A stretch of 63,271 bases of DNA, counting the filler, from Stramenopiles sp. TOSAG23-6 (taxonomy: Eukaryota): the NCBI GenBank assembly GCA_900128565.1. It is 21 parts of 21 records of this genome, joined end to end, with 100 filler letters (N's around TTAATTAATTAA, not from the genome) between each part and the next. Parts side by side here need not be neighbours in the genome. Positions count along the whole stretch, not along the records: positions 33,330 to 36,242 come from LT637746.1; 20 more parts are not named here. One strand, given 5' to 3'. A program made the translations under genes and the position numbers. Below, in pieces: positions 3,043 to 43,794 of the stretch (position 1 is its first letter; every line of letters begins with the position of its first letter). Under the pieces are notes generated by a model, which saw nothing but the letters and a program-made list of their open reading frames with translations, did no database searches and was not told where the DNA came from.

Positions 3043-3506
3043 CAGATGAAGATATTCCACAAATTATGGATGCTGTTTCATTAGATGGTGATCGCGTGAC
3101 GTATGGAGAATTCGCCCCTCTGGCATATGATTTACTTGTTGAAATTACCAAACAGGAACTTGGAAAACAAGGTAATGGTAACGACACAGCTCAAGAAAGA
3201 GCCACGGAAATTGCAAGAGAAGAAGCAGAAGATCTGCTCGTTAATGGTATGACAAAAGATCAAGTGGAAGAAATTCTAGTCAATATTTTTCAGGATGCTG
3301 ATAGCGATGGTAGTGGTACATTAAGCAGAGATGAATTCGGACAGTGTTTGAGAGATACTGATGTAGGTCTCACTGAAGGTGATATTGAGTATTTAATGGA
3401 TAAAACAGATGAAAATCAAGATGGTTTGATAAGTTTTGGCGAGTTTGTACCATTAGCGTTTGATCTTCTTGTAGAAGTCATGGCCCGACAACTAGTAGAA
3501 CAATGA
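3043..3506 (+). CDS. EF-hand calcium-binding protein, 5'-partial
   Basis: Loops DADSDGSGTLSRDEF, DENQDGLISFGEF and DGDRVTYGEF. Confidence 0.85.
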
Positions 3507-3643
3507 AAATAGTAGGGTATTCATTTCGAAAATGGACATCATTTCTTGCTATGCTACAAACAAAAACAAAAACAAACTGTATAACTTTGTACTAAGTATT
3601 TATTTTTATAGAATAAAATGTTTACAAACGTATTCCTTGAACA

Positions 3644-5983
3644 TTATATTCCTGTTGATGCACTGTATACTGAATGTCTTTCTTTAAAATCAATTTCCTC
3701 TGTATTAGATGCATCATTTGTATCTACAAACCGCTTACTAGTAAAGCTATTATTATTATTATTATTATTATTATTACTTACCACAATATACTTTTCAGAA
3801 CCTTCCATTGTTTCTAATAGTTTGCGCCCGTCAAGTAATGACTCCAAGCAAAGAGTTGAGTCGTCAATGCGAGCCACACTAGGATAACCTCGTATCAGCA
3901 GCAATCGATGGCGCATGTCGCGAGCAGTTTGTTCAGATTCTAGAGCTGCCGTAGATGCTATATTGGACGTAGATTGAGATGATGATTCAGATTTGGCCTT
4001 GGATGATTCACTCTGACGCTGCATTGAGATTCTTTTCTCACTGGCTTGTTCCATGTGCGCGTGAAGCTTTTGTAATCTTTTCCATTTTACCAATGTATCA
4101 ACTGAAGCAGAGACAAAACNNNNNNNNNNNNNNNNAGTTTTCATTTGTTGATGTTGAAAGTGCTGATAAAGGTGCAACAATATGTCGGAATAGCGTTAGT
4201 GCCCAAGAATTATCAACACGCTTCGATATTGTTAAATCATTCTTCTGTGATTCCTTTTTTTTGAAACTCTTTCTATCTTCATCAGATCTTGTACTACCAA
4301 CATCGAGGCCCATCAAAGGTGAAATCTGATATGTTTTAATATCTTTTTCTAAATGACGGAGCAGATATCCTCGAAGTGAATCATCGTGCAAGTAATATGA
4401 AGCGGCAAGGGCGCCATTTAAAGGTAACCCACATGTAGTTTGATGTAGCATACCACTTTCATCTGGTTGTAAATGAGGATGTAAGCCTCGAACAAAACCT
4501 ACGACAGAATCTTGCAAAAATTTAAAAATATATTGTCGTTTTTGTTTGATATTTGGCAAACGAAATGCCGCATTATTTTCATTGGTTGCATGATTCGTTT
4601 CTATATTGTTATCAATATTTCCTTTATCCTGCTTTGTTTGAAGTACTTCTAACAAAGTATCAAAATAACGAAGATGACTTGCAGCTGCTTTAAGAGCATG
4701 AAAAGACCATTTGCCACTACTATAACTACTTTGTGTCATCATCACATCAAACTTTTCTACGTATTCGTCCCAACCTTTCATAAGTCGAATACCTAAGGAT
4801 TCCTTCAATTCTTCAATAAGTGATAAAGTCACCCATACCATGCCATTACCATGGAAAGGTAAGCGTTGCCATAAACTGTCTCTATAAAATAGCTGAAGTC
4901 CTGCAAGCCAACGTTGCAATTGTTCCAAAAATTGTGTATCACCTGTAGCTTGCTGATAAATTGCTGCAAGAATTATTGCATTCGTTGTAAATGTTGGTGT
5001 GTCTACACCCCACTCATCTTGGTCAGGATGGCGTCGACTTGCAATCACTTCAGCTATGGGTTTCCCCTTTTTATTTTCACTAAGATCAGTCGTGTCCATT
5101 TCCGATTCCGTGCGTTTTACCACAGTAGAAACTGCACCTAATGCACTTAAGGGCTGCCCCGAAGATAACTGGGCAAGAGCTGATCTGAGTAAAGGTTGCA
5201 ATGTCATATCGCCAGTCTCACTGCAATATCTTGCCAATGCCGTTAATGCACCTAACTGTCGATTGATACAATTGCTTATAGAATTTGACGTTTCGCCGAG
5301 GCTACTTTCGTTTCTTGTATTACCACCTAATGGAGGCGGCAATCCAAGCCCTGTGTGTAGTGAGTCCCGCTCGCGATTTTTCATTTCATCTAAATCTTGA
5401 ACATTAATACAACCTCCTTCAGGACCCCAATTCATGTTTGAATGACTCCATTCATATCCAAACAAAGCACCCCCTCCACCATGACGAAACCGTCTTAATA
5501 AATGAGAAACTACATTCTGAAGGGCGCTATTTACACTTGAAGAGATACGACTAACATCATTGCGTTGCAGAGGAACAGTGATTCCGCTAACACCCTTCAA
5601 AGGAGGAGGTATCCCGTTTGTCTTTTCTTCTTGAACTGGAAGAACCAATGAAAATTTTACAGATGAAGAAGAACCTATAAGTCTTCCTACACCATCCAGT
5701 TCTAGCCAAATGTTCAGCACCATTTTTAATTGTTTTTTTTCTTCATTAGAATTGACTAACGACCCCGACGATACCCTTTGCGCTGCTACCCAGGCTTTCG
5801 TCTTTGTATCTAAACCAATCGCTACTTCTGGTTGACTCTTTGTATCATTGCTATTTAACAATAAAGGCATAGTAGCGAGATTTTGACAGAAAGAACCTAC
5901 CTTAGGATTGTGTTTTTCTGTCAGTTTTTCATCTCCGGTTTTATTTATTAGGGTTAGGGTTGAAGGTTTGACGTCGTCAGGAG
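3644..5983 (-). CDS. Uncharacterized large protein, 5'-partial, interrupted by an N gap
   Basis: ORFs 4098-5870 and 3644-4180 either side of the gap; frame open to the contig edge. Confidence 0.6.
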
Positions 5984-6083: not shown

Positions 6084-9020
6084 AACCCAATTAGAGATCC
6101 GCCAAGTAGACCATTATCAGCAAATGGAAATCCCATTCCAATTGGTAAACCAAATAAACCAAATACAAAAAATAAAAAAAATACAAAAAATAAAAAAAAT
6201 ACAAAAAATACAAAATGTCCAATGTTGATGTCAGTATTTACAAATCTTTCCATTTTAACTACGTCACTTCGACGACAACGAGCTAATATTGATTATATTG
6301 AAAGAAGTGCTCTGGCTTGTACGTTTTTTTTTAACCCTAACCCTAATGATTCTGTACCTCCACGTTTTTTTCTTTCAACGCTAACCCTAAACAAAATGTT
6401 GTACCTAACAAAAATTAACATTTCTGAAATATTGTCTCGAAATTACAGGTAATCGAATGTCGATTACTGAAAGTCAAAAAGAGAGATATTGTTTACGTCG
6501 TAGACCAGGTCCAGAAGCATCGCCACTATTGACAAAACTATATTATTGTGAAAAGAATATAAAATTAAAATATAGAGAAATGTTGAGACAAATTAAGATG
6601 GAGAGACGAAACAAGGGTCGGAAAAAAAAAAGAAGTATTATTCATTCGACTCGTAATTTTCATCAAAAGAAAGAAAAAAAAACATTGAAAGATTTCACAA
6701 AACGACAGAAAAAAACCTCTACAATTTCTACACATTTTAATAATTCTAAAACGTCTAAACACTCTACAATAAAACTAAAACAACAGCACAAACAGAACCA
6801 AAATGTTTTATATAGTGAGTCTAATAGTACTTCTAGTGGTAACAGTATTGAATGTAGTCATGTCAATTCGAATTCTTTTCAAGGTAGACATAGAGAAATT
6901 ATATCAAGAACTACATCATTACTTAGTACAGGCAACACATCAAGTACTATTAAACATATAGAAAATACAATGACTGGTCCTAAAAGTATTTCAAGCAACA
7001 CATCAAGTACTATTAAACATATAGAAAATAGAATGACTGGTCCTAAAAGTATTTCAAGTAGCAAATCAGGTACAATTAAACATATAGATCATTTTGAAAA
7101 CAAAACAACACAGATAATAGAATCTACAAATAAAGAATCAAAATGGATCATTGGTGATGTTTCAGTACAAAAGATATTAAGTGAAGGACAGACAGTGGAT
7201 AAAAATGACATCATTGATTCTGTTCAAGACAAATTATCACTTGATAAAGACATCGAACGACCCATCTCTGTATGGGGTGGAAGAAGTGAAAACATGGCCG
7301 GTGTGATTATCGTTGGACCTGATTCTAATGACTCCAATAGAGACATCATTCCACAAAATAATACTTATGCTTCTGCATACCCTCCAGGTATAGGTGCTAT
7401 TGAAACAACAACTCATCACATATCAAATTCAATTGATGAAACAAATATTGAAAAAGCAAAAGACGAAGCAGATAAAAATGCAGCATTTGCAGAACTTATT
7501 CAAAAGTCTAATAAAGGTATTGTATTAGCTAAATTTTGTACGGAGGAAGATCGGATAAATAATGAAATTTATCCTGAAGCACAGTATAGTGAGAGTGATC
7601 ATTACAAATCTGATGTCTCAGATCGGTCAAAAATTATCAAAAAGAAAAAAAGAAAAAAAGGTAAACGAATTTCCAGATATAAAAGAAACAAAAGAAATGA
7701 TCAAGTAAATAATATATATAATGAAAGAAATGTAATGAATCAAAATAAATCAATTGAAGTCTCATTCAAATATGAACGAGATAAAACAGATAAAAACGAA
7801 ACTTGGTCATTATCCAATCCTAGAATGACGGCAGTATCCAATTCAACAATGACGCAATCTGAGGATACTTTAGTCACTGATACCCTACATCCTAACCCTA
7901 ACACTACTACGGTAGTCACGAAATCGGGAACAAATCTATTAAAAGCATGGTTACATAAAGCTAAATCAAATTTGCAACAACAAGTAGCAGAAAAGCGAGA
8001 TATAGGAAGATGTACGTTTTCAATACATTGATTTTTTTTTTGTACATTTCATTTTTTTTTAAATTTCAAATTTATTTAAAAAAAAATGTTTTTTACAATA
8101 TTTTTCACAATTTATGGTTGCGCTTGCTAGAACGACGATTGGTTGAAAGTACAAGTACGTATAAAGTACTACGTCATTTAAAACATATCATTGCACGCTT
8201 TACAGCATTACCATCAAGAGAACAAAAACAAATCAAATATCAATTGGATATGTTGAAAATAAAGAGTAATCCTAACCCTAATGAAAATCCTACCCATAAT
8301 GAAATCAGTCATCAAAAAAAAAGTAAATTATCGAGAGAAAGACAAAAATACAAAACGAAACGCCTCCAATTAAAACTTGTCAAAGCAAATGATAGAATGG
8401 TTCAATTTGAAAAACATCTATCAACATTGTCTGTATCTGTAGTAATAGAAGCAATATCTAGCATACAACAAAATCTTGAATACATGTACGTTTTCAATTT
8501 TTCAATGTTTCAATTTTAAGTTTTTTTTTTGTAGTAAATTTTGTACCTAACAAAAAAAACTTTTACCGAAAAAAAAATATTTCCCAAAAATACATAGGAC
8601 AAATGTGTGCAGTTTTGGCCGCTGATTTAACTCGTTGGAACAAAACTGATGATAATTATACAAACACACGAAATATGTCAATGATAAAGTTGATGGAAAG
8701 TGATAATAATAAGAATAATAAGAATAATAAGAATAATAAGAAAAAGCTGAAAACAAAACAAAAAAGCACCCAACAACGAAAATTGAAACAACGAATGTGT
8801 TGGCATTGTGGAATAAAACTGCCTTATACAACTGGAAACTTTTGCGAATTGTGTGGTGTAGCCCTTCCACCGAGTGTTTCGTTTAATCGTGAATCATCCT
8901 TTGGTTCTCCACCTCCAAAACCATTTGGTCCTCCACCTCCAAAACCACCAAAACCACCAAAACCACCAAAACCATTTGGTCCTCCACCTCCAAAACCACC
9001 AAAACCACCAAAACCACCAA
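6084..9020 (+). CDS. Uncharacterized low-complexity protein with CxxC..CxxC motif and Pro-rich tail; introns 6319-6448, 8012-8115, 8486-8595
   Basis: ORF pieces join in frame after intron removal; CWHCG..FCELCG; PPKP repeats. Confidence 0.6.
6319..6448 (+). mobile_element. Introner-family intron, rare GT..AG variant
   Basis: gtacgt...tacctaac...aattacAG; contains CCCTAA repeats. Confidence 0.75.
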
Positions 9021-9174: not shown

Positions 9175-11421
9175 GAAAAAAAGATACAAACGATATCGAG
9201 CAGCAGTGCGTTGTTGGAGAGAAAGACATGCAAGGCCTCTTGTAAACCGTGTAGAACAACACATTGCTCGTGAAATTCGTAATTATATGGAAGTTCAATC
9301 TTTGCGAACAAAAAACGATATTCGAATGACACGTATTATTTTTAAGAGATGGCGGAGAGAATCGAGAAAATCTCGTCCACACGTCAAAGCAAAAATGTCA
9401 AAAGTCTTACAAATGCTAAATGAACGAAACTCTCGTACACTAAAACTTTGTTTTCAAAGTTGGGGGCTTTGTGCGAATGGAAAGGGGAGTTGTAAAGCTG
9501 TAAAAGCTGCATATAGAGCTAGGTATATAAAGGCGAGAGCTACGGTAAAAGATAAATCACGAATTAAAGGAATTATTGCAAAAAGTGAGATTTTACGACA
9601 ATTAAATTGCGATGCGACTGCAATCATTCGTGCAAACCATACAAAATATTTAATGCTCACATGTTTTAGTGCATGGGAATATGATACACTTTCAAAATTT
9701 AGATGGAAAGTTAGTCAAGCAAATCGACATTTTTTCATAACAACGACAAGCAAATGTTTCCAAGCTTGGCATTATTATATTGATATGGTTTTATCAGGAT
9801 TACCTGGTGCACCTCGGGAAGGTGCGCAGAGGTTTCAATCACTACATAATCAAAATGCAATACATCAACACTGGCGACGTAGTCATCTACGAAAGCATTT
9901 AAAGTATTGGAATATTTATTCTAAACCGAGAGCACACGTTCGAAGGCTAGAGAATGAACATGTAGGTTCCCATACTGAATTTCAAATTTAGTTTTTTTTT
10001 CATATGCAATTTTGTACCTAACGATTTTTTTTTGAAATATTTTTTTATAATGTATGCAAACAAACGTGCTAGATGGGCCATTGACACGTGGAAATGTAGA
10101 ACGATTTGGTCAAAACGTATGAAAGCCTTGTGTGTGTCAGAATGGAAAGATTATGGTGAAAGACTTATGTCAGTACCTTTTCGAGCATGGTTTTGTTGGG
10201 CACATGTACGTTTTCATTATGAATTTTATTTATTTACTTTTTTTTTTTAGTATGAAATTTTGTACCTAACAATTTTTTTTTGGTAAAAAAAAAAAAANAT
10301 ATTTTTTCACAATATATGAAAGAAGGATACGAAAAACAACAAAACGAGTCATCGTCAGCGCATTTCGACGTAGAAAAATGTATCATAGAAAATACCAAAT
10401 ATTTAAAGCCTGGAAACATTTAGCAATGTTTGGTAAAGTGGAAGGCTTAAAGAGTAGGGTATCATGTACGTTTGCAAATTTAAAATTTTACCTACATGTT
10501 TTTACTATGAAAATTTTGTCCCTAACAATTTTTTTTCTTAAAGAAAAAAAATATTTTTTCACAATACATTGATAAAAGCATTACAAGAACAAAATACATT
10601 TGCAGTGGCACTCGAGGAAACAATCGATAAATTACAAGATGAATTAGAAGTATCAGAAGCCGCATTGAAATCCCAACAGGAGGAAAATAAAGAACAACTG
10701 GAAAAACATGAAGACTTGTACGTTTTCAAAATTGTATTTTAATTTTTTTTTTGGTAGAAAATTTGTACCTAACGAATTTCAAATGTAAAATATTTTTTAA
10801 GAATACTTGGAGCATAAATTCCAAAGACATGAGTTTGCGTTGCATACTGCGGAAGCAGAAATAGTTCGGTTGCAGTCAATAATTGATGCTCTCACAATCA
10901 TGTACCCTAGTACAGTAAAACTTTTGGATGATGCTGCTGGAGGAAACCCAAAAGATGAAAATAAAGCTGTACATGAAAATACTGATGACAATCAAATAGA
11001 TACAGCGAATGACGATGCTGACATTCTTGATTTAAAACCTTTTGTGAGAATGAGAATTAAAGAATCCAATGAAAATGATGATGATGCTACAGAAGTGAAA
11101 AGTAAAGAATCCAATGAAAAAGATTCTACCAAAGATAGCACGAAACAAAAGATTACACTGAATTCTATGCCAAGCACAGAAGAACTTGTTATAGATTCTA
11201 GTAATGATTCCAGTAATGTAATTAACAGTATACAAAGCCCAGAAAACAAGGTCGTGGGCTCTAGTAATGACTTAAATGTTGCCACTTTGAAAGCAACCAC
11301 TACAGTCACAGAGGAACAACAAAACGTTGAATCTGTGGATGCAAATCAAACCAACACACCGGCAAGTGACTCTACTAATAATGTAAATGATAAAGCTCTA
11401 CAAATGACTCAAGAGCATTGA
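9175..11421 (+). CDS. Sfi1-like (centrin-binding repeat) coiled-coil protein, partial; introns 9962-10055, 10206-10317, 10466-10569, 10718-10808
   Basis: Repeated F/LxxW motifs in basic helices (CFQSW, CFSAW, CFQAW, PFRAW, IFKAW); all four introns restore the frame. Confidence 0.55.
10718..10808 (+). mobile_element. Introner-family intron, GT..TT with TT repeat
   Basis: gacTT|gtacg...aatacTT|ggag; restores EDL-EHK. Confidence 0.85.
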
Positions 11422-12000
11422 TTGCATTTTTACATGCATCACGATTTTCTATATGATGCGCAGGTATATTCGATAATCTCTGGGTTTCAACAAGTTTAGT
11501 TAGTTGTGCTGCACAAGGTCGGACTAACTCTAGAAGAATTTCACATGCTCGACTTATTGGTTTTAATTGAGCAACAACCCCTGCCAAACCTCTAACTACA
11601 TGCATTTGACTATCTTTTGGTAAGCGTTGAACGCCTGGATGTACATGTATTGTAGGAAAATAATTGTTTTTTAGATTTTTTTGTTAGGTACAACATTTCG
11701 TATGAAAAAACAATATAAATTTGAAATTCATTATGAAAAACGTACACTTAAAACATGTTTGATACTTGCTTCCGACGCAATAAAATGTGTTCCACAACGA
11801 CTACACAATAGAGCAAATGCATCGGCAGCTGCCGGAGAAATAACTGGATTAGCTTCAAGAAGTCCACTAACGATCATATTAAAGGCTGGAGTCAATTGTT
11901 GAGGATTTCGATTCAACCAATGTGAAAAACGACCAATGACAACAATACACACTCTAAGCAATCGGATATTATTACTCCATCCAGAACTTTTTTGTGTGAT
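11375..12000 (-). CDS. Transportin-3/importin-13-like HEAT protein fragment; intron 11645-11745
   Basis: IGRFSHWLNRNPQQLTPAFNMIVSGL..AAADAFALLCSRC resembles TNPO3/Mtr10 HEAT repeats; the upstream partial intron ends atacAA. Confidence 0.55.
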
Positions 12001-15262: not shown

Positions 15263-17038
15263 CGGGCTGAAAAGGAAAGACGAAAGGCAGAGATGGAAAC
15301 TTTGGAGTCCGATGAAAGCAATAGTGTGAGTAAAATAAAGAATCCTAGAAACAATTTGAAACAGAGACTTTCTGGGGCAAGACCACTTTCTGCTGCAGAA
15401 GTCAAAGTAATTGCAAATAGTAACGAACATGTATGTTTTATTTTTTTTTTTACAAAAAAGTCGAATTTTTTTTTCGTACGAAAATTTGTACCTAACATTT
15501 TTTTTTAGATTTTTTTGAAATATTTTTCCAAAATACATTATCTCGCTTTTTGGAAATCGAAATTATCAAAACAAAGAGTAGAAGTTGAACAAATGCAAAA
15601 AAGAGTAGCTAAAACGAATATACGACAGAAAATATTACAAGGTAGGAATAATGAACTTGAAGCTAACCTTGCACAAAGTCAATTAGCGCTCAGTACGTTT
15701 TTTTTTTTAATTTCTATTTCGATTTTTTTTTCATACGAAATTTCGTACCTAACAAAAAAAAATATTTTTTTTTTCACAATACATGTGTATCTCGAAATAA
15801 TAATTCAGAATTTCGTCGTTCCCGACCAATGACAGCTCCTTTACATCGCACCAAGTCTCCAAATATGTCAAATATTACTGTAAATGGTTTCTACAAATAC
15901 AACAGGAATAGGGGTAACAATGGTAACGATGAAAAACATGAAAATCCATCGTATGACGTCACTGGTTCTAAGGAAGCATTCACGGACATAAACAATACAT
16001 CACAAAAGAGTAAAATTGATGTGCACCCAATCCCTAACCCTAATGACGATGATGATGAAAATGATGTATATCGAATATCAAATAATTCTGCTAATTTACT
16101 CAAAAAAGCACGTGGTATGTTGGGAGAAAAGATTGATATGTATGTTTTACTTTTTTTCAAATTCGAAATTGTTTTTCGTACGGAATTTTGTACCTAACAA
16201 ATTTTAGTTTTTTTTTTGAAATATTTTTCCAAAATACATAGCGATAGAAGAAACGTACAAGACAAAGATTTCACAACACAAGAAATTCATGTACGTTTTC
16301 AACATTAATTTTCGTACCTAAGAAATTTTTTCATACGAAATTTTGTACCTAACAAATTTTACAAAAAAAATATTTTTCACAATACATGCAAAACACAAAT
16401 AACAATGATGATTATGGACTTGTACGATCAACTACTGCACGATCATGTTTGTTTTATTTTTTTTCAAACTCGAATTTTTTTTTCGTACGAAATTTTGTAC
16501 CTAACGAATTTTCTTTTGAAATATTTTTCCAAAATACATCAGCTGTCGAAAGAGCTCGATCTAGAAGAAATAGACCAGTCTCAGCGCATCCGAGATATAA
16601 TAGTAGAAATGTATTTTTTTTTTTTTCAATTTCGAATTTTGTTTTATAGTAAATTTTGTACCTAACGATTTTTTTTTGAAATATTTTTCCAAAATACATA
16701 CTTCATCTACCACAAACACTTTTTCTTCTAGGGAACGCATCCCAATCAAAGATAAGAGGCCTTCATCAGCATATACTAAAAATACTAAAAATAAAACTAG
16801 AATAATTCCTGTATTTCCTCAGAAGATTTCAACAAAAGTTCAGGGTAGACCATGTACGTTTTTATTATCAATTTTAATTTTTTTCATACGAAATTTCGTA
16901 CCTAACGAATTTTTATTATCAATTTTAATTTTTATTTGTTTACTGTATGAAAATTTCGTACTAACAAAAATAATATTTCGAAATATTTTTTCACTAAATA
17001 TCATCGGCATATCCCCGTGCTAGATCTCACATAAATAT
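15263..17038 (+). CDS. Uncharacterized coiled-coil protein with RPx(S/T)A repeats; introns 15431-15538, 15693-15784, 16140-16239, 16291-16387, 16447-16539, 16611-16699, 16854-17001
   Basis: Seven family introns each restore one open frame; motifs RPLSA, RPMTA, RPVSA, RPSSA. Confidence 0.6.
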
Positions 17039-17137: not shown

Positions 17138-17917
<780 letters not shown>

Positions 17918-19739: not shown

Positions 19740-21038
19740 ATGAAGAAGGGCACTTATAGTCACGAATCTGGGGTATTCACCGAGACTCCATCAGAAGCAG
19801 CTCAAAGATTATTTGATCAAGGTCTTATAAGCGAGTCTGATTTGGACCAGTGCTTAAAGGCCGACGAGGATTTCCAGCGGAGTCGTAGAGAAAGCACCCA
19901 GGAAGACCTTTCAAATCAAGGAAAATTAGTTAGGCCTTTAAGTCCTCGATCTGCAGCACATGTGCTATTTGAAAAGGGTGAAATATCTGATGCTCAATTA
20001 GCAAAGTTGCTAGGTTCAGCAGATATTTTTTTGCCCGACAATCAAACAAAGAATTCTGGTTTGATGAATTCCTTTCGTAAAAGTTTCCGTAAAAAGAAAA
20101 CTCATCAAGAATTAAGGAACGTTGAAATTGGTGGTTCACATTTACGTGAGGCTATTATGACTGGTAATGTTGAAGCCATCACTGAAGCATTAGAGAAATA
20201 CCCAACATGTGCAACAAAACAAGATTCTAGGGGAGATATACCTCTTTTAGTTGCTTCTCGCATAGGTCGTACTCCTGCTATTAAAAGTATACTTGATCAT
20301 GATGCAACATTGGCTTTTATACGAGGATCTGATAATTTATGTTCAGCGACGGTGTGTGGTTCTCGATCAGCTGGTCGCATGGTGGTGTATGTTTTTTTAA
20401 TTTTTTTTAATTTTTAAATTTCGTACGAAATTTTGTACCTAACAAAAAAAAATATATATTATTTTTACAATACATACTACATATGTTGAAATTTTGGAAT
20501 AATCAAAAGCAATTGGAGTTAAAAGCTCATAGTCTAGATAACAGAAAAACACGAAAAAAAAAGTTCTCGCGGCTAAATTCGAAATTGAAAATAATTTCAA
20601 CATTGGAGGAAAGCATTGTTGCAAGAGCAAGACGTGGTTGTTGTTTGTACCAAAAAGATGTATGTTTTATTATGTTTTTTCATCAAATATTTTTTATTTT
20701 TTTTTCATATGAAATTTTGTACCTAACAAAAATTTTAAAGTGTTTCGAAATTGTTTTTGATAATACATACAACAAATAGTGGTTTTGAAGAAAATAATAC
20801 TGTTTGTGTGACAAGTGGTGTCAATTTTTCTTCCAGTACAAATTTTATATGTAAAAATAACCCTAACCCTAAGCTAGAAAGGAATTTGGACACTGATGAT
20901 GACGTTTCAAAATATTTACCTGATAGAATTTTTGATTATTTTGCAATTATTTCTTCGAAAACCTCATCTACTAGTGACGTCATACCATCACCATCCTATA
21001 TTAAGATTGTACTAATAATTTATTACCCTGTTACATGA
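19740..21038 (+). CDS. Ankyrin-repeat protein; introns 20387-20475, 20660-20768
   Basis: LREAIMTGNVEAITEAL and DSRGDIPLLVASRIGRTPAIKSILD ankyrin motifs. Confidence 0.6.
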
Positions 21039-32183: not shown

Positions 32184-33164
32184 TTAATTACTACAAAGAA
32201 GTTCTTCCTTTGGGTAAACTTTAAATGTATTTAATGCCCATAATGTCACACACGTTGGGATTAATAAAATTCCGAAACAAAGTGACAGCCAAGCAATTTT
32301 TATATCATTTCTTTTTGTATCATCACCAGGAAGAGTTTGATCTGAATTTATTTGAGTTGTAATTTCATTACATACAGGAATATTTATATACATTGATTTT
32401 AAATAAAAAGCTGCAGGTAGTACAAATATCATCATAGGAGAGCAAGTGGACCCGACTAAGCTTACAACAACCTCAATATCGTGAGCAATCATGTATTATG
32501 ATTTTTATTTATTTTTATTTTTTTTGTTAGGTACGAAATTTACTATAAAAAAAAAATAAATTTGGAAATTTGATGATAAAAACGTACATACCAATAGAAG
32601 CAGTAAAAACAACTAAAAAGAGGTTCAAAAAAAAATTAGATATAAAAGACAACTTTGTGGTACCAAAAACCAGTTGAGATATATTTAATCGAGCTTCCCA
32701 GACTACTATCGGAAAAGAAAAAACAACTGAAAATCCAAAAGCTACTTTAAGAATCGTCCTGGATTGTGAAAAATATTCTTTTTTTTTTTTTTTTTTAGTA
32801 AAAAAAAACCGTTAGGTACAAAATTTTCTACCAAAAAAAAAAAATTAAAATTCATGTTAAAAAAAATACATTAAAGTATCAATAACAGATCCTCCAAATA
32901 TAAAATTTCGTAATAAATCATGACACGTGTTATTGCGAAAGGCCAAATATCCACAGATACCGACAGTCATATACGATATAGCACAAATACACGTATTGTG
33001 AAAACATATTAAAAAAAAAAATCTTTTTTGTTACGTACAAAATTTTCAAAAAAAAAACAAATAAAAATTCGTTAGGTACAAAATTAAAACGTACACATTG
33101 AAATATGCGAAACTTTTGAAATCTTTTTAGGATTTGGATTTTTCATTTCTCGATACACTGGAAA
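32184..33164 (-). CDS. Amino-acid transporter (Aa_trans/SLC38-like), 5'-partial; introns 32991-33094, 32759-32869, 32491-32587
   Basis: PVYREMKNP, YMTVGICGYLAF, FSFPIVVWEAR, VSLVGSTCSPMMIFVLPAAFY. Confidence 0.85.
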
Positions 33165-33329: not shown

Positions 33330-34736
33330 TAATATTTGACACTTCTCTTTTGTCAGTATCATTAATATTTGACACTTCTCTTTTGTCAATATCATTAACA
33401 TTTGACACTTCTCTTTTGTCAGTATCATTGTATTCGCATTTACTTTGATTAACACCAAATAGATATTTTCCTGAAATCACCAAATTCATTGTATCCTTCG
33501 CCTTCACCACGGCAGGCGAGGGAGGCGGAGGAGTCATTGGTGTTTCCGTATATAAAAACGAGTTATTCAAAGTATTATTTTCTTTTTCATCATTATTATC
33601 CAATCCATCAAGGTGATTCTTATTGAGTGAAGGATCAAAATTCAGTTTTGAAGACTTTTGAATTTGCTCAAGTAATTCTTCAAGCCAATTACACACATCA
33701 TCTGCATTAGGTCTATCTACTGATTCGTATTGAGTACATGTATTGTGAAAAAATATTTTTTTTTGTAATGTTTTTTGTTAGGTACAAAATTTCGTACGAA
33801 AAAAAAACAAATTCGAAATTGAAAAAAATTAAACATACACATCATTGAAAGTTCAACCAATGCATCAGGACATCCTTTAAGTACATTATCTTTAATAGCA
33901 GTGGGCTTAAAATCAAATAGATTTCGGGGAAGTCTTTTCAGGAACGTTTCAGGCAATTGGCATATATGGTGAAAAAATATTTCTTTTCGAAAACAATCGT
34001 TAGGTAAAAATTTTCATTAAAAAAAAAAAAAAAGNAAAAAATTCAATTTTGAAAACGTACAACATATACACTCGGCTATTATTACACCAAAGGAGAAAAT
34101 ATCTATTTTTTCATCTGCATGCTCATGAAGAAAAAGTTCTGGTGCCATATACGAGTCTGTACCTACTGTAGTCATTCGTTTACTTCTGATTTCTTTTGTT
34201 GAAATTCGCCGTGAAAGACCAAAATCAATAATTTTGCATTGACAACCAATTCCCCCGAGCATTAAATTTTCTGTTTTTAAGTCCCGATGTATAATTTCAC
34301 ACTCGTGCAAATGCCTCATTCCCCGAGCTGCGCCCAGTAAATAGAATACCAACTCATCCCATTTTTTAAATGGACCGTATGTAGTCCAATAATCTCGTAA
34401 CGTTCCGCCAGATAATAATTCCATAACAATCTTGGGCAATACACTCTTTTCTTCTAGAGCATTTTCGTCTTCTTCACAGTCATCTGACTTGTCACATAAA
34501 TCACTGTAGATAACACCATGAAGTTTAGCTAAGTTTTGATGATGTAATCTTCCTATTTCGATTTCACGGGTAATATACTTGATTGCAAATTCGTCGAACC
34601 CTGGTCGAAGGCGAAAACATTTGACTGCAACGGGTAGTCCTAACCAATTTCCAGCGACGACAGAGCCATATTTGCCAACTCCTAACTGTTCAGGTGGGTC
34701 CGCATAACTTATTTCATGAGCTAGAATATTATTCAT
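33330..34736 (-). CDS. TKL-group (LIMK/TESK-like) protein kinase; introns 33962-34060, 33738-33838
   Basis: GVGKYG, VAVK, HRDLKTEN, DFGLSR, VGTDSYMAPE, DIFSFG, C..DRP. Confidence 0.9.
33962..34060 (-). mobile_element. Introner-family intron, GT..AT, informative for splice register
   Basis: tgt t|gtacg...catatAT|gc caa gives ICCQLP; a 2-nt upstream shift would create TGA. Confidence 0.85.
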
Positions 34737-34772
34737 CCCTTATTAGCTCGGGTAAACAAATTGCTTTTCGAT

Positions 34773-34805
<33 letters not shown>

Positions 34806-35107
34806 TTTTCAATAAGATTAAATCAAATGAAACTATGTACGACACTTGCTTCTTTTGATCATTCGACGTATTTCAATTTAATGGTTCGATACAATTGTCA
34901 ACATTATTAATTTAGAGGTTTATAATAGCCCATTCGTATAGAGGAGCGGACGACATCACGATTTCAGATTCATCATCACGATTATTTCAGAATTTTCGGT
35001 TCTCAAAATTTTCTCAAATCTTTCGAAGGCGTACGATTTCAGATTATTCTCAAAGATTTATTCGTAAAGCACCAACATTGTTTCAATTTCGAATAAGGAA
35101 ATCCAGG

Positions 35108-36176
35108 ATGACGATATTCTTTACAATAATCTTTAGCCTATATTTCGTTTTCATAATAGATGTCTATAGTTTAAAAAAAACTCCACCTTTGCGCCCACCA
35201 GAGGCATATGAAAAGCCAAAGCCTGGACAACACATGGGTATGATGAGGTTATTGCACAATATGTATGAACGAGAAAAGCCAGTTGAAACTCTGAGTGTCC
35301 CATGTGATCCTCCTCAGCTAGTGCAAAAAACTGCTCACTTTTGCGTCGCCCAGAAAATAGCACCTGAAGGTTGTCTTCGTATGATCAAAGAAGTGCAAAC
35401 ACGGTGTACGCAACATGGGGGTAAAGGTCGCTATGAGCAAAAATTTGAGTTAAACAGAAGCGTTGTCGTACCTGTAGTTCTCCCAGATGATGTTTCTTTT
35501 ACCGTAGAGTTTTTTAATGATTCAAATCCAAAGTCTATTGCACTTGAAGTTTGCACTAAATTACACTTATCAGCAAGTGACGAAAGATGTATGCAAATGG
35601 CAAATTTTTTTGAGAGTAAAGTAGAAGAAAGTTGCTGGGAGTTGGGACATTGTGAGCATATGCCTCCAAAAACCGTTGAATTTTATCGTCAATATGGATA
35701 TTCAACGGGTGATGCACAAAATAATCGGAAAGGGAAAAAAAATAAAAAACGTAAAAATATAAAAATTCCACAGAAATATGCTCAAAAAGGTCCAAAAAAT
35801 CAAACTTCAACAACAGTTGGCTATGCAGAAGAAAGTAAGAAAAAAGATTCAACTTCTTCAAATTTAAGTTCAAATTCAAGTAGAGGCATAAAAGATGAAA
35901 TATTAACTCTTCCTGATGTTGTTCAAGATTTGGATACTGTACCCAAATCTCGAAAAGAGCAAGCAGCAGCCGCACAGATTATCTTTGACTGGCCGAAAGA
36001 AGGCATGGTACGTTTTTTTCATTTCAATTTAAATTTAAATTTCGAATTATTATTTTTTTTTTCTTACACTGTAAAATTCATACATTCATTTCATACCTAC
36101 TGAATTTCAAGCTGTAAAACATATTTTTTACAATAAATGTTTATCATGTCGATGCTATTCGCTTAGCTTTGCAAAT
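35108..36176 (+). CDS. Uncharacterized secreted or membrane-anchored Cys-containing protein, 3'-partial
   Basis: Hydrophobic N-terminus, long ORF, family intron 36008-36138. Confidence 0.6.
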
Positions 36177-37201
36177 GTATGTTTTATTTTTTTTTTACAA
36201 AAAAATCGAATTTATTTTTCGTACGAAATTTTGTACCTAACANNNNNNNNNNNNNNNNNNNNNNNNNNNNNNNNNNNNNNNNNNNNTTAATTAATTAANN
36301 NNNNNNNNNNNNNNNNNNNNNNNNNNNNNNNNNNNNNNNNNNTAAAAATATTTAATTTTTTTTTTTTTTTTTTTTTTGGTTAGGTACAGAATTTCGTACG
36401 AAAAAAAAAATTGTAAAATTCAACAATAAAAACGTATCAAGGGATTATAACTCTCAGGAGTGTCTGTATTCATTCGGCGTTTTGCATCGATTCGATTGGC
36501 TTGTAGTTGCATATCATCATATAAAGGAATATTTGGATCTCTATTCCATATTGTTCCTACATTTTTGTTAAAGTTTTTTACTGTCTTTTTTATTTCATTC
36601 TTTTTCTCCTCATTCATCAAAGTATTGCCATATAGCTCGGCTGTCTTCGTTTCCAACCCATCATCTTTTACAGGTACTAAGGGATTGGATACTTTAAAGT
36701 GTGACTTATCTTTAGTAGGTAATAAGGGAGTTGTCACTTTGAATTGAGATTCATCTTGATCAACATTTGAATTTGAACTCATTTTTCTTCTTTTTCTGAA
36801 TGTTATGAAAAAAACTTCAAAAGCTCCTCAAAATAAGTTGAATGTGTGTAGAAAAAGTATAGAAGCACCATTATATCGCATGTAGAGTTGGTAATAGACT
36901 TGGCTTAGTATTAATGTTTTGAATACAAAATAGACATTTTATTTAATATTATATATATTGTATAAATGTTGCTCTTACTAGTAGATGAATTAGTACTTTA
37001 TTATAGAGAGAGAGAGTCGATCGATGGACGTCTTCGTCTACTAAACCTCCGATGAAAAATATCCGAAACGTTACAAAATATAGAAAGTCGAAGTATTGAC
37101 ATTGTTCACAACACTACTTGCTAGTACAACACAACAAAATTACTCCTTACTACAGACAGTTACAACACATTTAATACATTTTATATACACAATTCATAAC
37201 T

Positions 37202-37687
37202 ATGTCACAAGCAAATGATTCAAAAGAGATAGTCATTGATGTTTCAGCGTTCATGACGTATGAAGAATATCTTGATTCACAGATCAAAGAAGTTGATGAG
37301 TTTTACTTGGAAGATAAGGAATTAGCTCGTGAATTAGTTCAATTGGGATACAGAGGCTCAGGGGACACGCTACAACGGGAAGATTTTGAAGCCCAGAAGA
37401 AGCTAGAACGTGACAAAAAGACTCAGAAAGCAGTAGTTCCGAAACATCTTGCTCACACAGGTATCAAGTTGGATGACTTTCCATTTCTAGAGGCTCTTGC
37501 TCATCGAGAAGAGTTAGTTCGGACTGGCAAACTAACGACAATCATTTTTATTCGTGATTATAACCAAAAAGGACAAGAAATCAGTGGATATATTGATTAT
37601 GCTCATCGACTCAAAACAGAAGATTTTGAACCGTACTTTGAACAAAAGAAAAGATTAATGCCACGTGCAAAAGATTTGAGCTATTAC
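37202..37687 (+). CDS. CFAP299: Cilia- and flagella-associated protein 299 (DUF4464), 3'-partial
   Basis: YEEYLDSQI..D.FYLED.ELAR.LV.LGYRG.G, IIFIRD.N.KGQEISGYIDYAHRLKTEDFEPYF. Confidence 0.85.
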
Positions 37688-37774
37688 GTACGTCTTTTTT
37701 TTTTGATTTTTTTTTTCAGTTTTTTTAATTTTTTTTTTCGTACGAAATTTTGTACCTAACGATTTTTTTATCCA

Positions 37775-37822
<48 letters not shown>

Positions 37823-37909
37823 TGGATAAAAAAATCGTTAGGTACAAAATTTCGTACGAAAAAAAAAATTAAAAAAACTGAAAAAAAAAATCAAAAAAAA
37901 AAGACGTAC

Positions 37910-38395
37910 GTAATAGCTCAAATCTTTTGCACGTGGCATTAATCTTTTCTTTTGTTCAAAGTACGGTTCAAAATCTTCTGTTTTGAGTCGATGAGCATAA
38001 TCAATATATCCACTGATTTCTTGTCCTTTTTGGTTATAATCACGAATAAAAATGATTGTCGTTAGTTTGCCAGTCCGAACTAACTCTTCTCGATGAGCAA
38101 GAGCCTCTAGAAATGGAAAGTCATCCAACTTGATACCTGTGTGAGCAAGATGTTTCGGAACTACTGCTTTCTGAGTCTTTTTGTCACGTTCTAGCTTCTT
38201 CTGGGCTTCAAAATCTTCCCGTTGTAGCGTGTCCCCTGAGCCTCTGTATCCCAATTGAACTAATTCACGAGCTAATTCCTTATCTTCCAAGTAAAACTCA
38301 TCAACTTCTTTGATCTGTGAATCAAGATATTCTTCATACGTCATGAACGCTGAAACATCAATGACTATCTCTTTTGAATCATTTGCTTGTGACAT
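37910..38395 (-). CDS. CFAP299: CFAP299 mirror copy (fold-back)
   Basis: Exact reverse complement of 37202-37687. Confidence 0.6.
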
Positions 38396-38814
38396 AGTTA
38401 TGAATTGTGTATATAAAATGTATTAAATGTGTTGTAACTGTCTGTAGTAAGGAGTAATTTTGTTGTGTTGTACTAGCAAGTAGTGTTGTGAACAATGTCA
38501 ATACTTCGACTTTCTATATTTTGTAACGTTTCGGATATTTTTCATCGGAGGTTTAGTAGACGAAGACGTCCATCGATCGACTCTCTCTCTCTATAATAAA
38601 GTACTAATTCATCTACTAGTAAGAGCAACATTTATACAATATATATAATATTAAATAAAATGTCTATTTTGTATTCAAAACATTAATACTAAGCCAAGTC
38701 TATTACCAACTCTACATGCGATATAATGGTGCTTCTATACTTTTTCTACACACATTCAACTTATTTTGAGGAGCTTTTGAAGTTTTTTTCATAACATTCA
38801 GAAAAAGAAGAAAA

Positions 38815-39159
38815 ATGAGTTCAAATTCAAATGTTGATCAAGATGAATCTCAATTCAAAGTGACAACTCCCTTATTACCTACTAAAGATAAGTCACACTT
38901 TAAAGTATCCAATCCCTTAGTACCTGTAAAAGATGATGGGTTGGAAACGAAGACAGCCGAGCTATATGGCAATACTTTGATGAATGAGGAGAAAAAGAAT
39001 GAAATAAAAAAGACAGTAAAAAACTTTAACAAAAATGTAGGAACAATATGGAATAGAGATCCAAATATTCCTTTATATGATGATATGCAACTACAAGCCA
39101 ATCGAATCGATGCAAAACGCCGAATGAATACAGACACTCCTGAGAGTTATAATCCCTTG
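38815..39159 (+). CDS. Uncharacterized protein first exon (mirror copy at 36438-36782, minus strand)
   Basis: ATG ORF running into a family intron that starts ATACGTTTT. Confidence 0.5.
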
Positions 39160-39354
39160 ATACGTTTTTATTGTTGAATTTTACAATTTTTTTTTTCGTA
39201 CGAAATTCTGTACCTAACCAAAAAAAAAAAAAAAAAAAAAATTAAATATTTTTANNNNNNNNNNNNNNNNNNNNNNNNNNNNNNNNNNNNNNNNNNNNTT
39301 AATTAATTAANNNNNNNNNNNNNNNNNNNNNNNNNNNNNNNNNNNNNNNNNNNN

Positions 39355-40797
39355 TAATATTTGACACTTCTCTTTTGTCAGTATCATTAATATTTGACAC
39401 TTCTCTTTTGTCAATATCATTAACATTTGACACTTCTCTTTTGTCAGTATCATTGTATTCGCATTTACTTTGATTAACACCAAATAGATATTTTCCTGAA
39501 ATCACCAAATTCATTGTATCCTTCGCCTTCACCACGGCAGGCGAGGGAGGCGGAGGAGTCATTGGTGTTTCCGTATATAAAAACGAGTTATTCAAAGTAT
39601 TATTTTCTTTTTCATCATTATTATCCAATCCATCAAGGTGATTCTTATTGAGTGAAGGATCAAAATTCAGTTTTGAAGACTTTTGAATTTGCTCAAGTAA
39701 TTCTTCAAGCCAATTACACACATCATCTGCATTAGGTCTATCTACTGATTCGTATTGAGTACATGTATTGTGAAAAAATATTTTTTTTTGTAATGTTTTT
39801 TGTTAGGTACAAAATTTCGTACGAAAAAAAAACAAATTCGAAATTGAAAAAAATTAAACATACACATCATTGAAAGTTCAACCAATGCATCAGGACATCC
39901 TTTAAGTACATTATCTTTAATAGCAGTGGGCTTAAAATCAAATAGATTTCGGGGAAGTCTTTTCAGGAACGTTTCAGGCAATTGGCATATATGGTGAAAA
40001 AATATTTCTTTTCGAAAACAATCGTTAGGTAAAAATTTTCATTAAAAAAAAAAAAAAAGNAAAAAATTCAATTTTGAAAACGTACAACATATACACTCGG
40101 CTATTATTACACCAAAGGAGAAAATATCTATTTTTTCATCTGCATGCTCATGAAGAAAAAGTTCTGGTGCCATATACGAGTCTGTACCTACTGTAGTCAT
40201 TCGTTTACTTCTGATTTCTTTTGTTGAAATTCGCCGTGAAAGACCAAAATCAATAATTTTGCATTGACAACCAATTCCCCCGAGCATTAAATTTTCTGTT
40301 TTTAAGTCCCGATGTATAATTTCACACTCGTGCAAATGCCTCATTCCCCGAGCTGCGCCCAGTAAATAGAATACCAACTCATCCCATTTTTTAAATGGAC
40401 CGTATGTAGTCCAATAATCTCGTAACGTTCCGCCAGATAATAATTCCATAACAATCTTGGGCAATACACTCTTTTCTTCTAGAGCATTTTCGTCTTCTTC
40501 ACAGTCATCTGACTTGTCACATAAATCACTGTAGATAACACCATGAAGTTTAGCTAAGTTTTGATGATGTAATCTTCCTATTTCGATTTCACGGGTAATA
40601 TACTTGATTGCAAATTCGTCGAACCCTGGTCGAAGGCGAAAACATTTGACTGCAACGGGTAGTCCTAACCAATTTCCAGCGACGACAGAGCCATATTTGC
40701 CAACTCCTAACTGTTCAGGTGGGTCCGCATAACTTATTTCATGAGCTAGAATATTATTCATCCCTTATTAGCTCGGGTAAACAAATTGCTTTTCGAT

Positions 40798-40830
<33 letters not shown>

Positions 40831-42266
40831 TTTTCAATAAGATTAAATCAAATGAAACTATGTACGACACTTGCTTCTTTTGATCATTCGACGTATTTCA
40901 ATTTAATGGTTCGATACAATTGTCAACATTATTAATTTAGAGGTTTATAATAGCCCATTCGTATAGAGGAGCGGACGACATCACGATTTCAGATTCATCA
41001 TCACGATTATTTCAGAATTTTCGGTTCTCAAAATTTTCTCAAATCTTTCGAAGGCGTACGATTTCAGATTATTCTCAAAGATTTATTCGTAAAGCACCAA
41101 CATTGTTTCAATTTCGAATAAGGAAATCCAGGATGACGATATTCTTTACAATAATCTTTAGCCTATATTTCGTTTTCATAATAGATGTCTATAGTTTAAA
41201 AAAAACTCCACCTTTGCGCCCACCAGAGGCATATGAAAAGCCAAAGCCTGGACAACACATGGGTATGATGAGGTTATTGCACAATATGTATGAACGAGAA
41301 AAGCCAGTTGAAACTCTGAGTGTCCCATGTGATCCTCCTCAGCTAGTGCAAAAAACTGCTCACTTTTGCGTCGCCCAGAAAATAGCACCTGAAGGTTGTC
41401 TTCGTATGATCAAAGAAGTGCAAACACGGTGTACGCAACATGGGGGTAAAGGTCGCTATGAGCAAAAATTTGAGTTAAACAGAAGCGTTGTCGTACCTGT
41501 AGTTCTCCCAGATGATGTTTCTTTTACCGTAGAGTTTTTTAATGATTCAAATCCAAAGTCTATTGCACTTGAAGTTTGCACTAAATTACACTTATCAGCA
41601 AGTGACGAAAGATGTATGCAAATGGCAAATTTTTTTGAGAGTAAAGTAGAAGAAAGTTGCTGGGAGTTGGGACATTGTGAGCATATGCCTCCAAAAACCG
41701 TTGAATTTTATCGTCAATATGGATATTCAACGGGTGATGCACAAAATAATCGGAAAGGGAAAAAAAATAAAAAACGTAAAAATATAAAAATTCCACAGAA
41801 ATATGCTCAAAAAGGTCCAAAAAATCAAACTTCAACAACAGTTGGCTATGCAGAAGAAAGTAAGAAAAAAGATTCAACTTCTTCAAATTTAAGTTCAAAT
41901 TCAAGTAGAGGCATAAAAGATGAAATATTAACTCTTCCTGATGTTGTTCAAGATTTGGATACTGTACCCAAATCTCGAAAAGAGCAAGCAGCAGCCGCAC
42001 AGATTATCTTTGACTGGCCGAAAGAAGGCATGGTACGTTTTTTTCATTTCAATTTAAATTTAAATTTCGAATTATTATTTTTTTTTTCTTACACTGTAAA
42101 ATTCATACATTCATTTCATACCTACTGAATTTCAAGCTGTAAAACATATTTTTTACAATAAATGTTTATCATGTCGATGCTATTCGCTTAGCTTTGCAAA
42201 TGTATGTTTTATTTTTTTTTTACAAAAAAATCGAATTTATTTTTCGTACGAAATTTTGTACCTAAC
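39355..42266. repeat. Exact duplicate of contig 33330-36242 (TKL kinase plus secreted protein)
   Basis: Identical ORFs offset by 6025 nt, same single N. Confidence 0.95.
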
Positions 42267-42366: not shown

Positions 42367-43794
42367 CTCAAATATATTACATAAATGAACCAAGACTTCC
42401 CACGTTTCAAACCAGTGGAAAAGAAAGTCTTAGAAATCCCTCGAGCGAACTTACGGTGACATCCCACAATGCAGCTTATGTGTGCTATACGAAAGATTCG
42501 AGTAATCCAAATTGTGGAAAAAACCAAACATGCACTACAGGCATTACAAGTTTGCCTATGCCAGGAGCGGTTTTATTTGATCTCGGAACAATAAACCGGG
42601 ATACTCTTTTTAAAGTAGTCGGCTGCCCATCTACAAGAGGAATACCGCCACCACAACAATCGGATGTATCACAAGTACAATATTATCTTGATGCAGGAGA
42701 AATAGTTTTTCAACCCAGCAGTACTTTTTCTCTTTTAATCATGAATCCTTGTTTCATTTTTTTCGTATGAAATTTTGTACCTAACAAATTTTTCTTTGTA
42801 AAATATTCTTTTATCTTACTGCTACTAAAGAGGCCCTCAAAAACCCAAGTGTAATTACAATATCATCTGATAACTCAAAAGCGATTTGCTATTCAATGGA
42901 TGAAAATAGTCTACCAAGTTGTTCAAGTAATGGATCAGCATGCACTTTGGGCACAAATGTAGAAGCTCATGGTCTTATCTCTTTGTCGAAGAGCGGTACT
43001 GTATGTTTTCACTATTTTTTTTAAATTTCATTTTTTTTTTCCAAAGTTTATCCCTTACGATATTTTTTACGATTTTTTTTACGAAAAAAAAAAATATATA
43101 TATTTTCACAATAACGATATATGCAGTTGGTTGTGTCGATACAACTCTTCCAGGTAAACCTAATCATTCCAAAGTTGGAAGTCAATCTTATACACTCATG
43201 CCAGGAGCAGTTCAGTTTAGTCCTAAAGAAGGTAGTGTTGCAAACCCGACAACGATTACAGTCTCGTGTGGTGCGGAATCGCCAGATAAACATAATATTT
43301 GCTATACGGTAAACAGTAACTCCAAAACTGAAATCACTGATGCAGAATGTGCTACGGATGGTGGGTCATGTACCAATGGAACATTGGTTCCGGAAAGTGG
43401 TATTGTAATAACAGAGGAAACGACCTTGAGTGCACAATGCTGTATGAATACGACAAAAATAAAACCCGCATCGGAAATTCCAGTAGCTACTATATTGTAT
43501 ACGATTGGAGCATCAAATGCAATACTTGAAACGGATGCGGGAGATCGCGTTCTTAAAGGTACAATCATTACTATTTGTCTTTTATGTATGTTTTGTTGTC
43601 CTGGATTTTAGTTTTTTGTACCAAATTTCCTACTAACAACAATTTTTATTTTTTATTTTTACAATACATTCATCCCCGTCATTATGATATTTACATGTCC
43701 GCGATACCTTACCCCAAATTACGACCCACCAGAATGGTGGGATGAAGCGTATGATAGTGAAGATGACAATGGAACTGAGAGTAAAGATAAATAA
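42367..43794 (+). CDS. Single-pass membrane protein with Fn3-associated/CHB_HEX_C-like repeats, 5'-partial; introns 42721-42821, 43001-43116, 43586-43669
   Basis: Repeats VCYTKDSSNP / ICYSMDENSLP / ICYTVNS; TM segment IITICLLFIPVIMIF after splicing. Confidence 0.55.

Follow-up and report, generated by a model that had tools for sequence, protein, structure and literature searches.

Stramenopiles sp. TOSAG23-6 (GCA_900128565.1) carries a family of introns that very probably are major (U2-type) spliceosomal introns cut as GT..NN, with NN mostly AT, matched by a U1 small nuclear RNA (snRNA) bearing three changes (U2A, U5G and C9A) and derived from introners. We analysed a window of 63,271 nucleotides (nt), made of 21 contigs of ~2.9 kb each joined by N spacers, in which a 99-nt member of the family interrupts a protein kinase gene at 33962-34060 on the minus strand. 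From this one informative site, the original prediction had favoured GT..NN over AT..AC boundaries and argued against U12-type splicing. Both positions are now borne out by the U1 5′ end, a spliced RNA contig, counts of stop codons, homology at the locus L028 and the lack of matches to U12-type snRNAs.

The assembly is eukaryotic and comprises 21.1 Mb in 6236 contigs; for one of its proteins, the named nearest homologs come from diatoms. Scanning the window for the branch-box motif returned 89 candidate places, a few of which are chance matches. Introns were then parsed in the window plus ~0.7 Mb of further genome stretches (765 kb in total), where 605 branch-box candidates gave 539 that could be scored, 329 that passed and 296 distinct introns. 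Of the latter, 254 lie outside loci picked by their intron pattern, and these form the set described below unless another denominator is given. The 3′ ends were placed with a weight matrix blind to the last two intron bases, and frames were assigned from sequence at least 6 nt from the junction, which was possible for 242 of the 296. We refer to the GT..NN cut as register 0 and to a slide of two bases to the left as register -2.

Family introns have a median length of 97 nt and nearly uniform donors (GT in 246, AT in 5, GC in 2 and GA in 1), with a donor matrix of GTAYGTTT that agrees with the predicted GTAYGT and departs from the U12-type RTATCCTT. A CTAAC core inside the branch box is able to pair with U2 GUAGUA, while pairs further upstream would need one bulged C, and the branch A lies 34-48 nt from the intron end. 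The 3′ end follows the consensus TTTT(C/T)C(A/C)AATAC-NN, in which the AC closing the core (93% A, 85% C) is steadier than the last two bases. These are AT in 209 introns (~82%), TT in 14, AG in 10, GT in 8, AC in 6 and others in 7, so that the terminal AG of U2-type introns is missing from most of the family; AT, TT, GT, AG, AC, GG, CT and AA all occur at the same aligned position. Genome-wide, in counts that include duplicated contigs, TGTACCTAAC occurs 9130 times versus 56 for its reversed control, and the full donor-branch-end pattern occurs 2606 times ending in AATAYAT and 121 times ending in AATAYAG, with none for the control. Canonical GT-AG introns persist in the genome, because RPS9 (L115:4660-4765) carries an ordinary CAG|GTATGT..CAG intron outside the family. 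Relaxed donors (ATATGT, GCATGT, GAACGT and GGATGT, at L011, L012, L035, L108, L063, L085, L091 and L106) produce AT..AT and similar introns.

The donor finds its counterpart in the genome's U1 gene. The only U1 found starts with AAACGUACAUG, which is exactly complementary to CAU|GUACGUUU where the cut precedes GT, and the reverse complement of its 5′ end (CCATGTACGTTT) equals the donor consensus plus the exon flank. Compared with the Rfam consensus start AUACUUACCUGG, the sequence AAACGUACAUGG differs at three positions: A2 faces intron position +7 (T in 100%), G5 faces +4 (C in 40%, T in 60%) and A9 faces exon position -1 (T in 87%). Averaged over the 254 introns, 9.16 of 11 Watson-Crick pairs form with C8 opposite +1. 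The AT..AC register allows 3.45 and none of the seven others more than 5.05; the Rfam-consensus U1 reaches 6.94 on the same introns. We infer that this U1 pairs with family donors in vivo and that the U2 spliceosome cuts them. U1 is of one type, present as two identical gene copies on two near-identical contigs, and a genome search for a canonical-type U1 pattern found none. The U2 GUAGUA, U5 loop 1 and U6 ACAGAGA box are unchanged, and the U4 gene is also intact.

The U5, U2, U1 and U4 genes lie head to tail on one strand within 640 nt (L008:9-645, G000:C1146; duplicate on C6122), separated by gaps of 2, 23 and 5 nt, with U6 on another contig. The arrangement suggests that the cluster may be one polycistronic transcript; a U5-U2 gene tandem pattern had no match in a metagenome collection. 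In U6 (L001:953-1056), AAU plus one extra base replaces the consensus ACG just upstream of ACAGAGA, and this changed stretch lies opposite the T-rich part of the intron beyond +6.

The final two bases of a family intron reproduce the end of its upstream exon. Introns ending in TT are preceded by an exon ending in TT in 10 of 14 cases, compared to 7 of 240 among the other introns; the corresponding counts are 6 of 8 versus 18 of 246 for GT and 6 of 10 versus 2 of 244 for AG (p 1e-5 or lower for each). This is a 2-bp target duplication, and it therefore points to an introner whose acceptor is borrowed from its AT target. Flanks match at 191 of 254 sites, where the register is ambiguous because of the duplication, and differ at 63. 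In 164 copies both flanks are AT, in agreement with the prediction that most copies can be read as AT-AC. The flanks of the 191 matched sites (C in 43%, G in 55%) rebuild the target as (A)C-AT-G(T), a near-palindrome. Where exon position -2 is the sole departure from AT, it falls at a third codon position in 14 of 25 cases versus 44 of 152 at matched sites (p 0.011), an excess expected if the upstream copy is exon.

The same matching could come from a loose register, in which splicing slips by one or two bases and selection keeps the 2-bp repeat since slippage within it leaves the mRNA unchanged. Such slippage would explain why ends and exons agree at 191 of 254 sites and why a downstream GT is preferred at mismatched ones, and the donors are relaxed too (8 of 254 are not GT). 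Nevertheless, a 2-bp target duplication accounts for the covariation without slippage, sites at which slippage gives stop codons persist, and the single RNA junction that fixes the register (in SGT1, below) is exact. We consider a loose register quite unlikely.

At the kinase locus, the element runs from 34060 to 33962 on the minus strand and contains one N at 34035. The upstream exon ends in ...ATATGTT, the element starts with GTACGTTTT and ends with CACCATATAT, and the downstream exon starts with GCCAA, so the exon end TT and element end AT differ as the original prediction had described. The 5′ splice site, GTT|GTACGTTT (34053-34063), is complementary to the U1 5′ end from -1 to +8. The branch-point box TACCTAAC occupies 33999-34006, with the branch A predicted at 34000, 39 nt from the 3′ end, and the end motif at 33962-33977, placed by weight matrix, consists of a T-tract, CACCATAT and then AT. 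Removal of the intron restores the frame between exon 1 (34061-34739), a stop-to-stop frame encoding a TKL-type protein kinase (Pkinase E 2e-36), and exon 2 (33839-33961). A second family intron of 101 nt with mismatched flanks (33738-33838, TGT|GTATGT..ACAT|GTAC) gives M or I by register without a stop, and is followed by exon 3 (33330-33737), open to the contig end (403 residues without a stop); all these features are on the minus strand.

Register 0 at this site encodes I-C-C-Q-L-P and register -2 encodes ATA followed by the stop TGA within the kinase, which reproduces the predicted readings. The claim that the site by itself favours GT..NN over AT..AC held in part. The slide does give a stop, but here it yields TT..AT and not AT..AC, and several registers are equal: the peptide of register 0 is also obtained in -1, +1 and +2, while -3, -4 and -5 contain no stop and give ILC or IIC, which fit kinase homologs no worse. 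Those homologs (818 matches; 60 aligned from 120 listed) fix the length of the junction and not its residue. The site thus rules out the 2-base slide and nothing else, and it is weak on its own because registers -1, 0, +1 and +2 share one peptide. Positions 33330-36241 are repeated exactly at 39355-42266 (2912 of 2912 identical; assembly redundancy, no strand assigned), and the intron copy at 39987-40085 is not an independent second site because it lies inside this duplicate.

Coding constraint across the family separates the registers more broadly. Register -2 alters the mRNA at 64 of the 242 framed introns and produces six stops over these informative sites, compared to none in register 0 (sign test p 0.016). 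At L028, an amino-acid permease with junction TC|GT..AT|GC, register 0 encodes Y-R, as in 12 of 12 homologs, while a slide of one base gives C and a slide of two gives a stop. At L065, register 0 encodes R and the slides encode C; among 45 aligned homologs of 134, none has C, nine have K or R and most are polar. For RPA2 at L054 (S or Y by register), alignments to solved structures stop one residue before the junction. Over all 296 introns, exact removal gives the best frame in 247, another frame is better in 40 and nine are ties.

We compared RNA from four metatranscriptome runs of two studies with the SGT1 locus (L089:740-6802), chosen for its codon bias and six family introns. Record 27 of the polyA run X4, a contig of 235 nt at depth 2.3 that aligns without a mismatch, joins L089 positions 3354-3417, 3524-3627 and 3723-3787, and rebuilding the spliced contig gives a continuous SGT1 coding sequence. 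Intron A (106 nt, TAT|GTACAT..CAGTTCAT|GCC) is removed exactly, with registers -2 to +1 equivalent; a CAG ending 5 nt upstream is unused, and a 2-base slide would give AT..TC boundaries. The flanks of intron B (GAT|GTTTGT..AATACAG|ATT) differ, and the RNA matches register 0 only, whereas register -2, here literally AT..AC, fails to match. The upstream dinucleotide is kept at intron B, and AT..AC is therefore refuted there. This answers the complementary DNA (cDNA) check proposed with the original prediction, upstream against downstream dinucleotide, for one AG-ended junction in one contig. Among the listed RNA pieces, one bridges junctions; 15 listed joints are jumps between repeat copies and not splicing. 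Word shares of 0.05-0.08 in the four runs were set aside as evidence, since they may stem from intron repeats. In runs X1 and X2, over L089:2770-3580 and 4191-4596, intron-family depth sums in the thousands with exons nearly uncovered, a signal that may reflect library DNA, unspliced RNA or stable excised introns.

The RNA bears directly on the reading that the introns are cut two bases further left, as NN-GTAYGT..AC (mostly AT..AC), by a U12-type spliceosome or by a U2 spliceosome tolerant of AT-AC. Several features agree with it: the AT/AT copies read equally well in either register, the AC at the core end is more constant than the last two bases, and U2-type AT-AC introns exist in animals according to the available text of PMC1557818. 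This reading is nevertheless excluded by the contig at intron B, would turn intron A into AT..TC, introduces the six stops at informative sites, gives a stop at L028 where all 12 homologs keep Y-R, and lowers U1 pairing to 3.45 of 11. Furthermore, the proposed search for U12-type genes gave no match to U11, U12, U4atac or U6atac at E up to 1 (41-50 candidates scored per search), while U1, U2, U4, U5 and U6 were found, and the donor matrix is not the U12-type one. We judge AT..AC splicing very unlikely.

A different way to avoid an unusual acceptor is for nearby cryptic AG sites to remove the elements, with proteins gaining or losing a few residues. The kinase site offers 11 frame-keeping GT/GC-AG alternatives, the smallest of which deletes two residues using a non-consensus donor 27 nt upstream, while keeping the true donor deletes 24. 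Across the family, 45 of 209 AT-ended introns contain an AG at least 10 nt past the branch point, and the median distance to the first downstream AG is 13 nt. Against this, the RNA contig skips the CAG that lies 5 nt before the AT end of intron A, just 68 of the 208 first downstream AGs keep the frame, and homologs align without gaps across L028, L065 and the kinase junction. Cryptic AG use is, in our view, very improbable.

Removal might also be non-spliceosomal, through pairing of the intron ends as has been proposed for the non-canonical introns of euglenids and Amoebophrya, or take place at the DNA level. The ends do form short inverted repeats (the donor versus ..AAAATAC; imperfect, AT-rich and ~7 nt long), and the sequence around the junction is palindromic. 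Such a process is nonetheless at odds with a constant branch box at a fixed distance, with the sense orientation of 262 of 284 elements, with a U1 that matches the donor and with intact U2, U4, U5 and U6 genes, and we regard it as extremely unlikely.

Several observations weigh against U2-type GT..NN splicing or narrow its basis. The predicted U1 gene scores 54 bits (E 8e-12), below the Rfam cut-off of 69.5. The RNA proof is one contig at depth 2.3 from one of four runs; the junction that fixes the register is AG-ended, registers -2 to +1 cannot be told apart at the AT-ended one, and no AT-ended mismatched junction, at 33962-34060 or elsewhere, was seen in the RNA, which was compared with the SGT1 locus. 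Just four of the six stops lie at AT-ended introns (sign test p 0.06 for these alone), two of them in loci fetched by intron pattern and one with a GG donor, and the -1 slide is excluded at AT-ended introns by two homology sites only. Mismatched flanks at 63 of 254 sites exceed what clean duplication predicts, and these sites are enriched in a downstream GT (28 of 63 versus 51 of 191, p 0.012). The 40 introns for which another frame fits better imply that the parser has errors. The assembly is fragmented and incomplete, so the missing U12-type snRNAs are weak evidence alone and no proof of absence.

In the mechanism we propose, a non-autonomous DNA transposon with the core GTAYGT...AATAC would insert at AT, usually within (A)C-AT-G(T), and duplicate 2 bp. 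The element would supply the donor and a strong branch box, and the right-hand copy of the duplication would serve as the acceptor dinucleotide, so that one copy is removed and the frame restored. U1 would read CAU|GUAYGUUU in the ordinary register, U2 would bind the branch box, and the cut would fall after the duplicated bases. Use of whichever AT or AG comes first past the branch point cannot account for the acceptor, because all 209 AT-ended introns contain an earlier AT and 45 contain an earlier AG at least 10 nt after the branch point. Most likely, the 3′ site is set by the branch box together with the fixed TTTTC(A/C)AATAC motif 34-48 nt downstream, with no check for AG.

A bolder version of this mechanism, to which we give somewhat less than an even chance, is that a transposon invasion rewrote the splicing code of this lineage. 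The major spliceosome would then be blind to the last two intron bases, with U2AF35 missing or altered beyond recognition; the distance from the branch box and a transposon-end motif would define the acceptor, and U1 would have changed at C9 so as to read the AT target of the transposon, possibly at both intron ends. In fission yeast, U1 pairs with the 3′ splice site. U2AF35 was not found in the incomplete assembly among 16 CCCH-finger matches (seven of the loci were read and the others assessed by the spacing of their fingers) or with three degenerate motif patterns, whose one promising match was rejected as a SAP-domain protein. A U2AF65-like gene is present; a Phe in its ligand motif was dropped as a sign of decay since it also occurs in plant and alveolate homologs, and a second TIGR01642 match is an unrelated SAP-RRM protein. 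In the accessible portions of the literature, the U2AF35 zinc fingers are described as reading AG (PMC7505975), and budding yeast is described as also lacking U2AF35, with fixed branch points (PMC8624252). The missing U2AF35 beside a present U2AF65-like gene is a lead and not a result.

Sequence relationships among copies are compatible with mobility: nearest-neighbour identity has a median of 0.86 and reaches at least 0.9 for 70 of 254 introns, some closest pairs lying within one locus. We infer a transposon origin, against which it counts that an autonomous element with matching ends was not found in a search for DDE_Tnp_4, the one transposase family searched. That search gave five matches, four at identical coordinates in four contigs, and the two loci read have ends unlike those of the intron; Harbinger-like elements were accordingly rejected as the source of the family. 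At L146:203-3311 (G000:C2432, with the same coordinates on three more contigs) lies a complete Harbinger-like transposon that has two open reading frames (ORFs), one family branch box between them and inverted repeats of 28 nt; its ends do not match those of the intron family. A 27-nt family pattern had no match in the metagenome collection, which possibly lacks this genome itself, and no relatives were found there.

Other family introns in the window vary in how much they say about register. The remaining sites singled out by the original prediction do not discriminate: the intron at 15693-15784 (plus strand, CA|GT..AT|GT, mismatched flanks) gives S or C, that at 11645-11745 (minus strand, GT|GT..AT|GT, in a transportin-3-like gene) gives S or N, and that at 20387-20475 (plus strand, GT|GT..AT) gives V or I, each by one residue and without a stop, while the 3′ end at 42721 could not be placed. 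The end copies the exon end, as expected of target duplication, at 10718-10808 (plus strand, TT|GT..TT) and at 32991-33094 (minus strand, GT|GT..GT). Two introns stand back to back at 17177-17389 (plus strand), where the CAT end of the first occupies the place of the exon CAT for the second donor. More such pairs, with no exon between, occur from position 61090 of the window onward, at L089 ~7980-8190 and at L090 4082-4290; the CAT end of the first intron provides the second with a perfect U1 site, which resembles a point of recursive splicing. At L022:201-2106, a cellular RNA-dependent RNA polymerase gene (PF05183) holds a family intron with mismatched flanks. Many contigs of the assembly terminate within a copy of the family, and a perfect 1557-nt inverted duplication at 36242-39355 of the window is an assembly artefact.

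The family shares features with several known systems, which are compared here as the available portions of the cited reports describe them. Chrysochromulina-type introners carry a 5′ splice site and take their 3′ site from the target duplication, and a locus-specific match of the ends is the test of target duplication used for introners (bioRxiv 10.1101/2022.06.06.494994). Our family is likewise multi-copy, with the donor inside the element, an acceptor from the duplicated target and an unchanged mRNA length, but it duplicates 2 bp instead of 4 and borrows AT (or TT, GT, AG and others) as its acceptor. The AT duplication is also that of ISL2EU transposons of the PHIS superfamily, whose target is A|AT|T, whereas C and G predominate in the flanks here and a matching transposase did not turn up in the DDE_Tnp_4 search (PMC4482050). 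A later introner survey accepts AG and AC 3′ sites only and discards unfamiliar families unless they have RNA support (PMC12130899); in 12 of the 14 supplementary files of that survey and part of one file of PMC9860276, no MAST-3 lineage is named.

Departures from GT-AG and coevolved U1 sequences have separate precedents in these sources. In Fritillaria borealis, most introns escape GT-AG with the U12 system absent and the U2 spliceosome at work, as is probably the case here; its U1 5′ end is strictly preserved and its U2AF genes are duplicated, whereas in our genome the GT donor stays and the U1 5′ end is rewritten (PMC13326754). U1 has coevolved with atypical donors in Entamoeba (AACAAAC) and Mastigamoeba (ACGUAC), and the ACGUAC core is common to Mastigamoeba and this genome; the changes in those amoebae lie opposite intron bases, unlike C9A, which matches the last exon base and, via the duplication, also the base that ends the intron (bioRxiv 10.1101/2022.06.08.495308). 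Amoebophrya, another marine protist, has repeated introns with direct and inverted end repeats and variable splice dinucleotides, but its U1 was undetected and its motifs are highly diverse, whereas this genome has a single family that keeps a fixed GT donor and a branch box and is matched by U1 (PMC7789003). Rare mammalian GT-AT introns (DGCR2 and seven U12-type cases) indicate that such boundaries can be spliced; these are single cases, compared to 209 of 254 (~82%) in a family of thousands of copies (PMC1557818). A literature search, with bioRxiv supplements and subscription papers outside its reach, found no genome dominated by GT-AT, no U1 C9A change and no U1 change that faces exon -1 and is linked to a non-AG acceptor. 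The family works like an acceptor-borrowing introner and escapes GT-AG, each of a known kind, with a U1 change opposite exon -1 added.

Few rules of splicing are as widely conserved as the terminal AG, and why it persists has yet to be answered. In this genome, thousands of introns have given up AG but kept GT, and U1 compensates base for base, also at the exon base whose duplication by the transposon creates the acceptor. Methods of gene calling and surveys of introners that rely on GT-AG will overlook or misannotate such lineages. Moreover, transposon-driven intron gain is tied to a change in the spliceosome within one genome, a link that can be tested, and the combination points to a splicing machinery reshaped by a mobile element.
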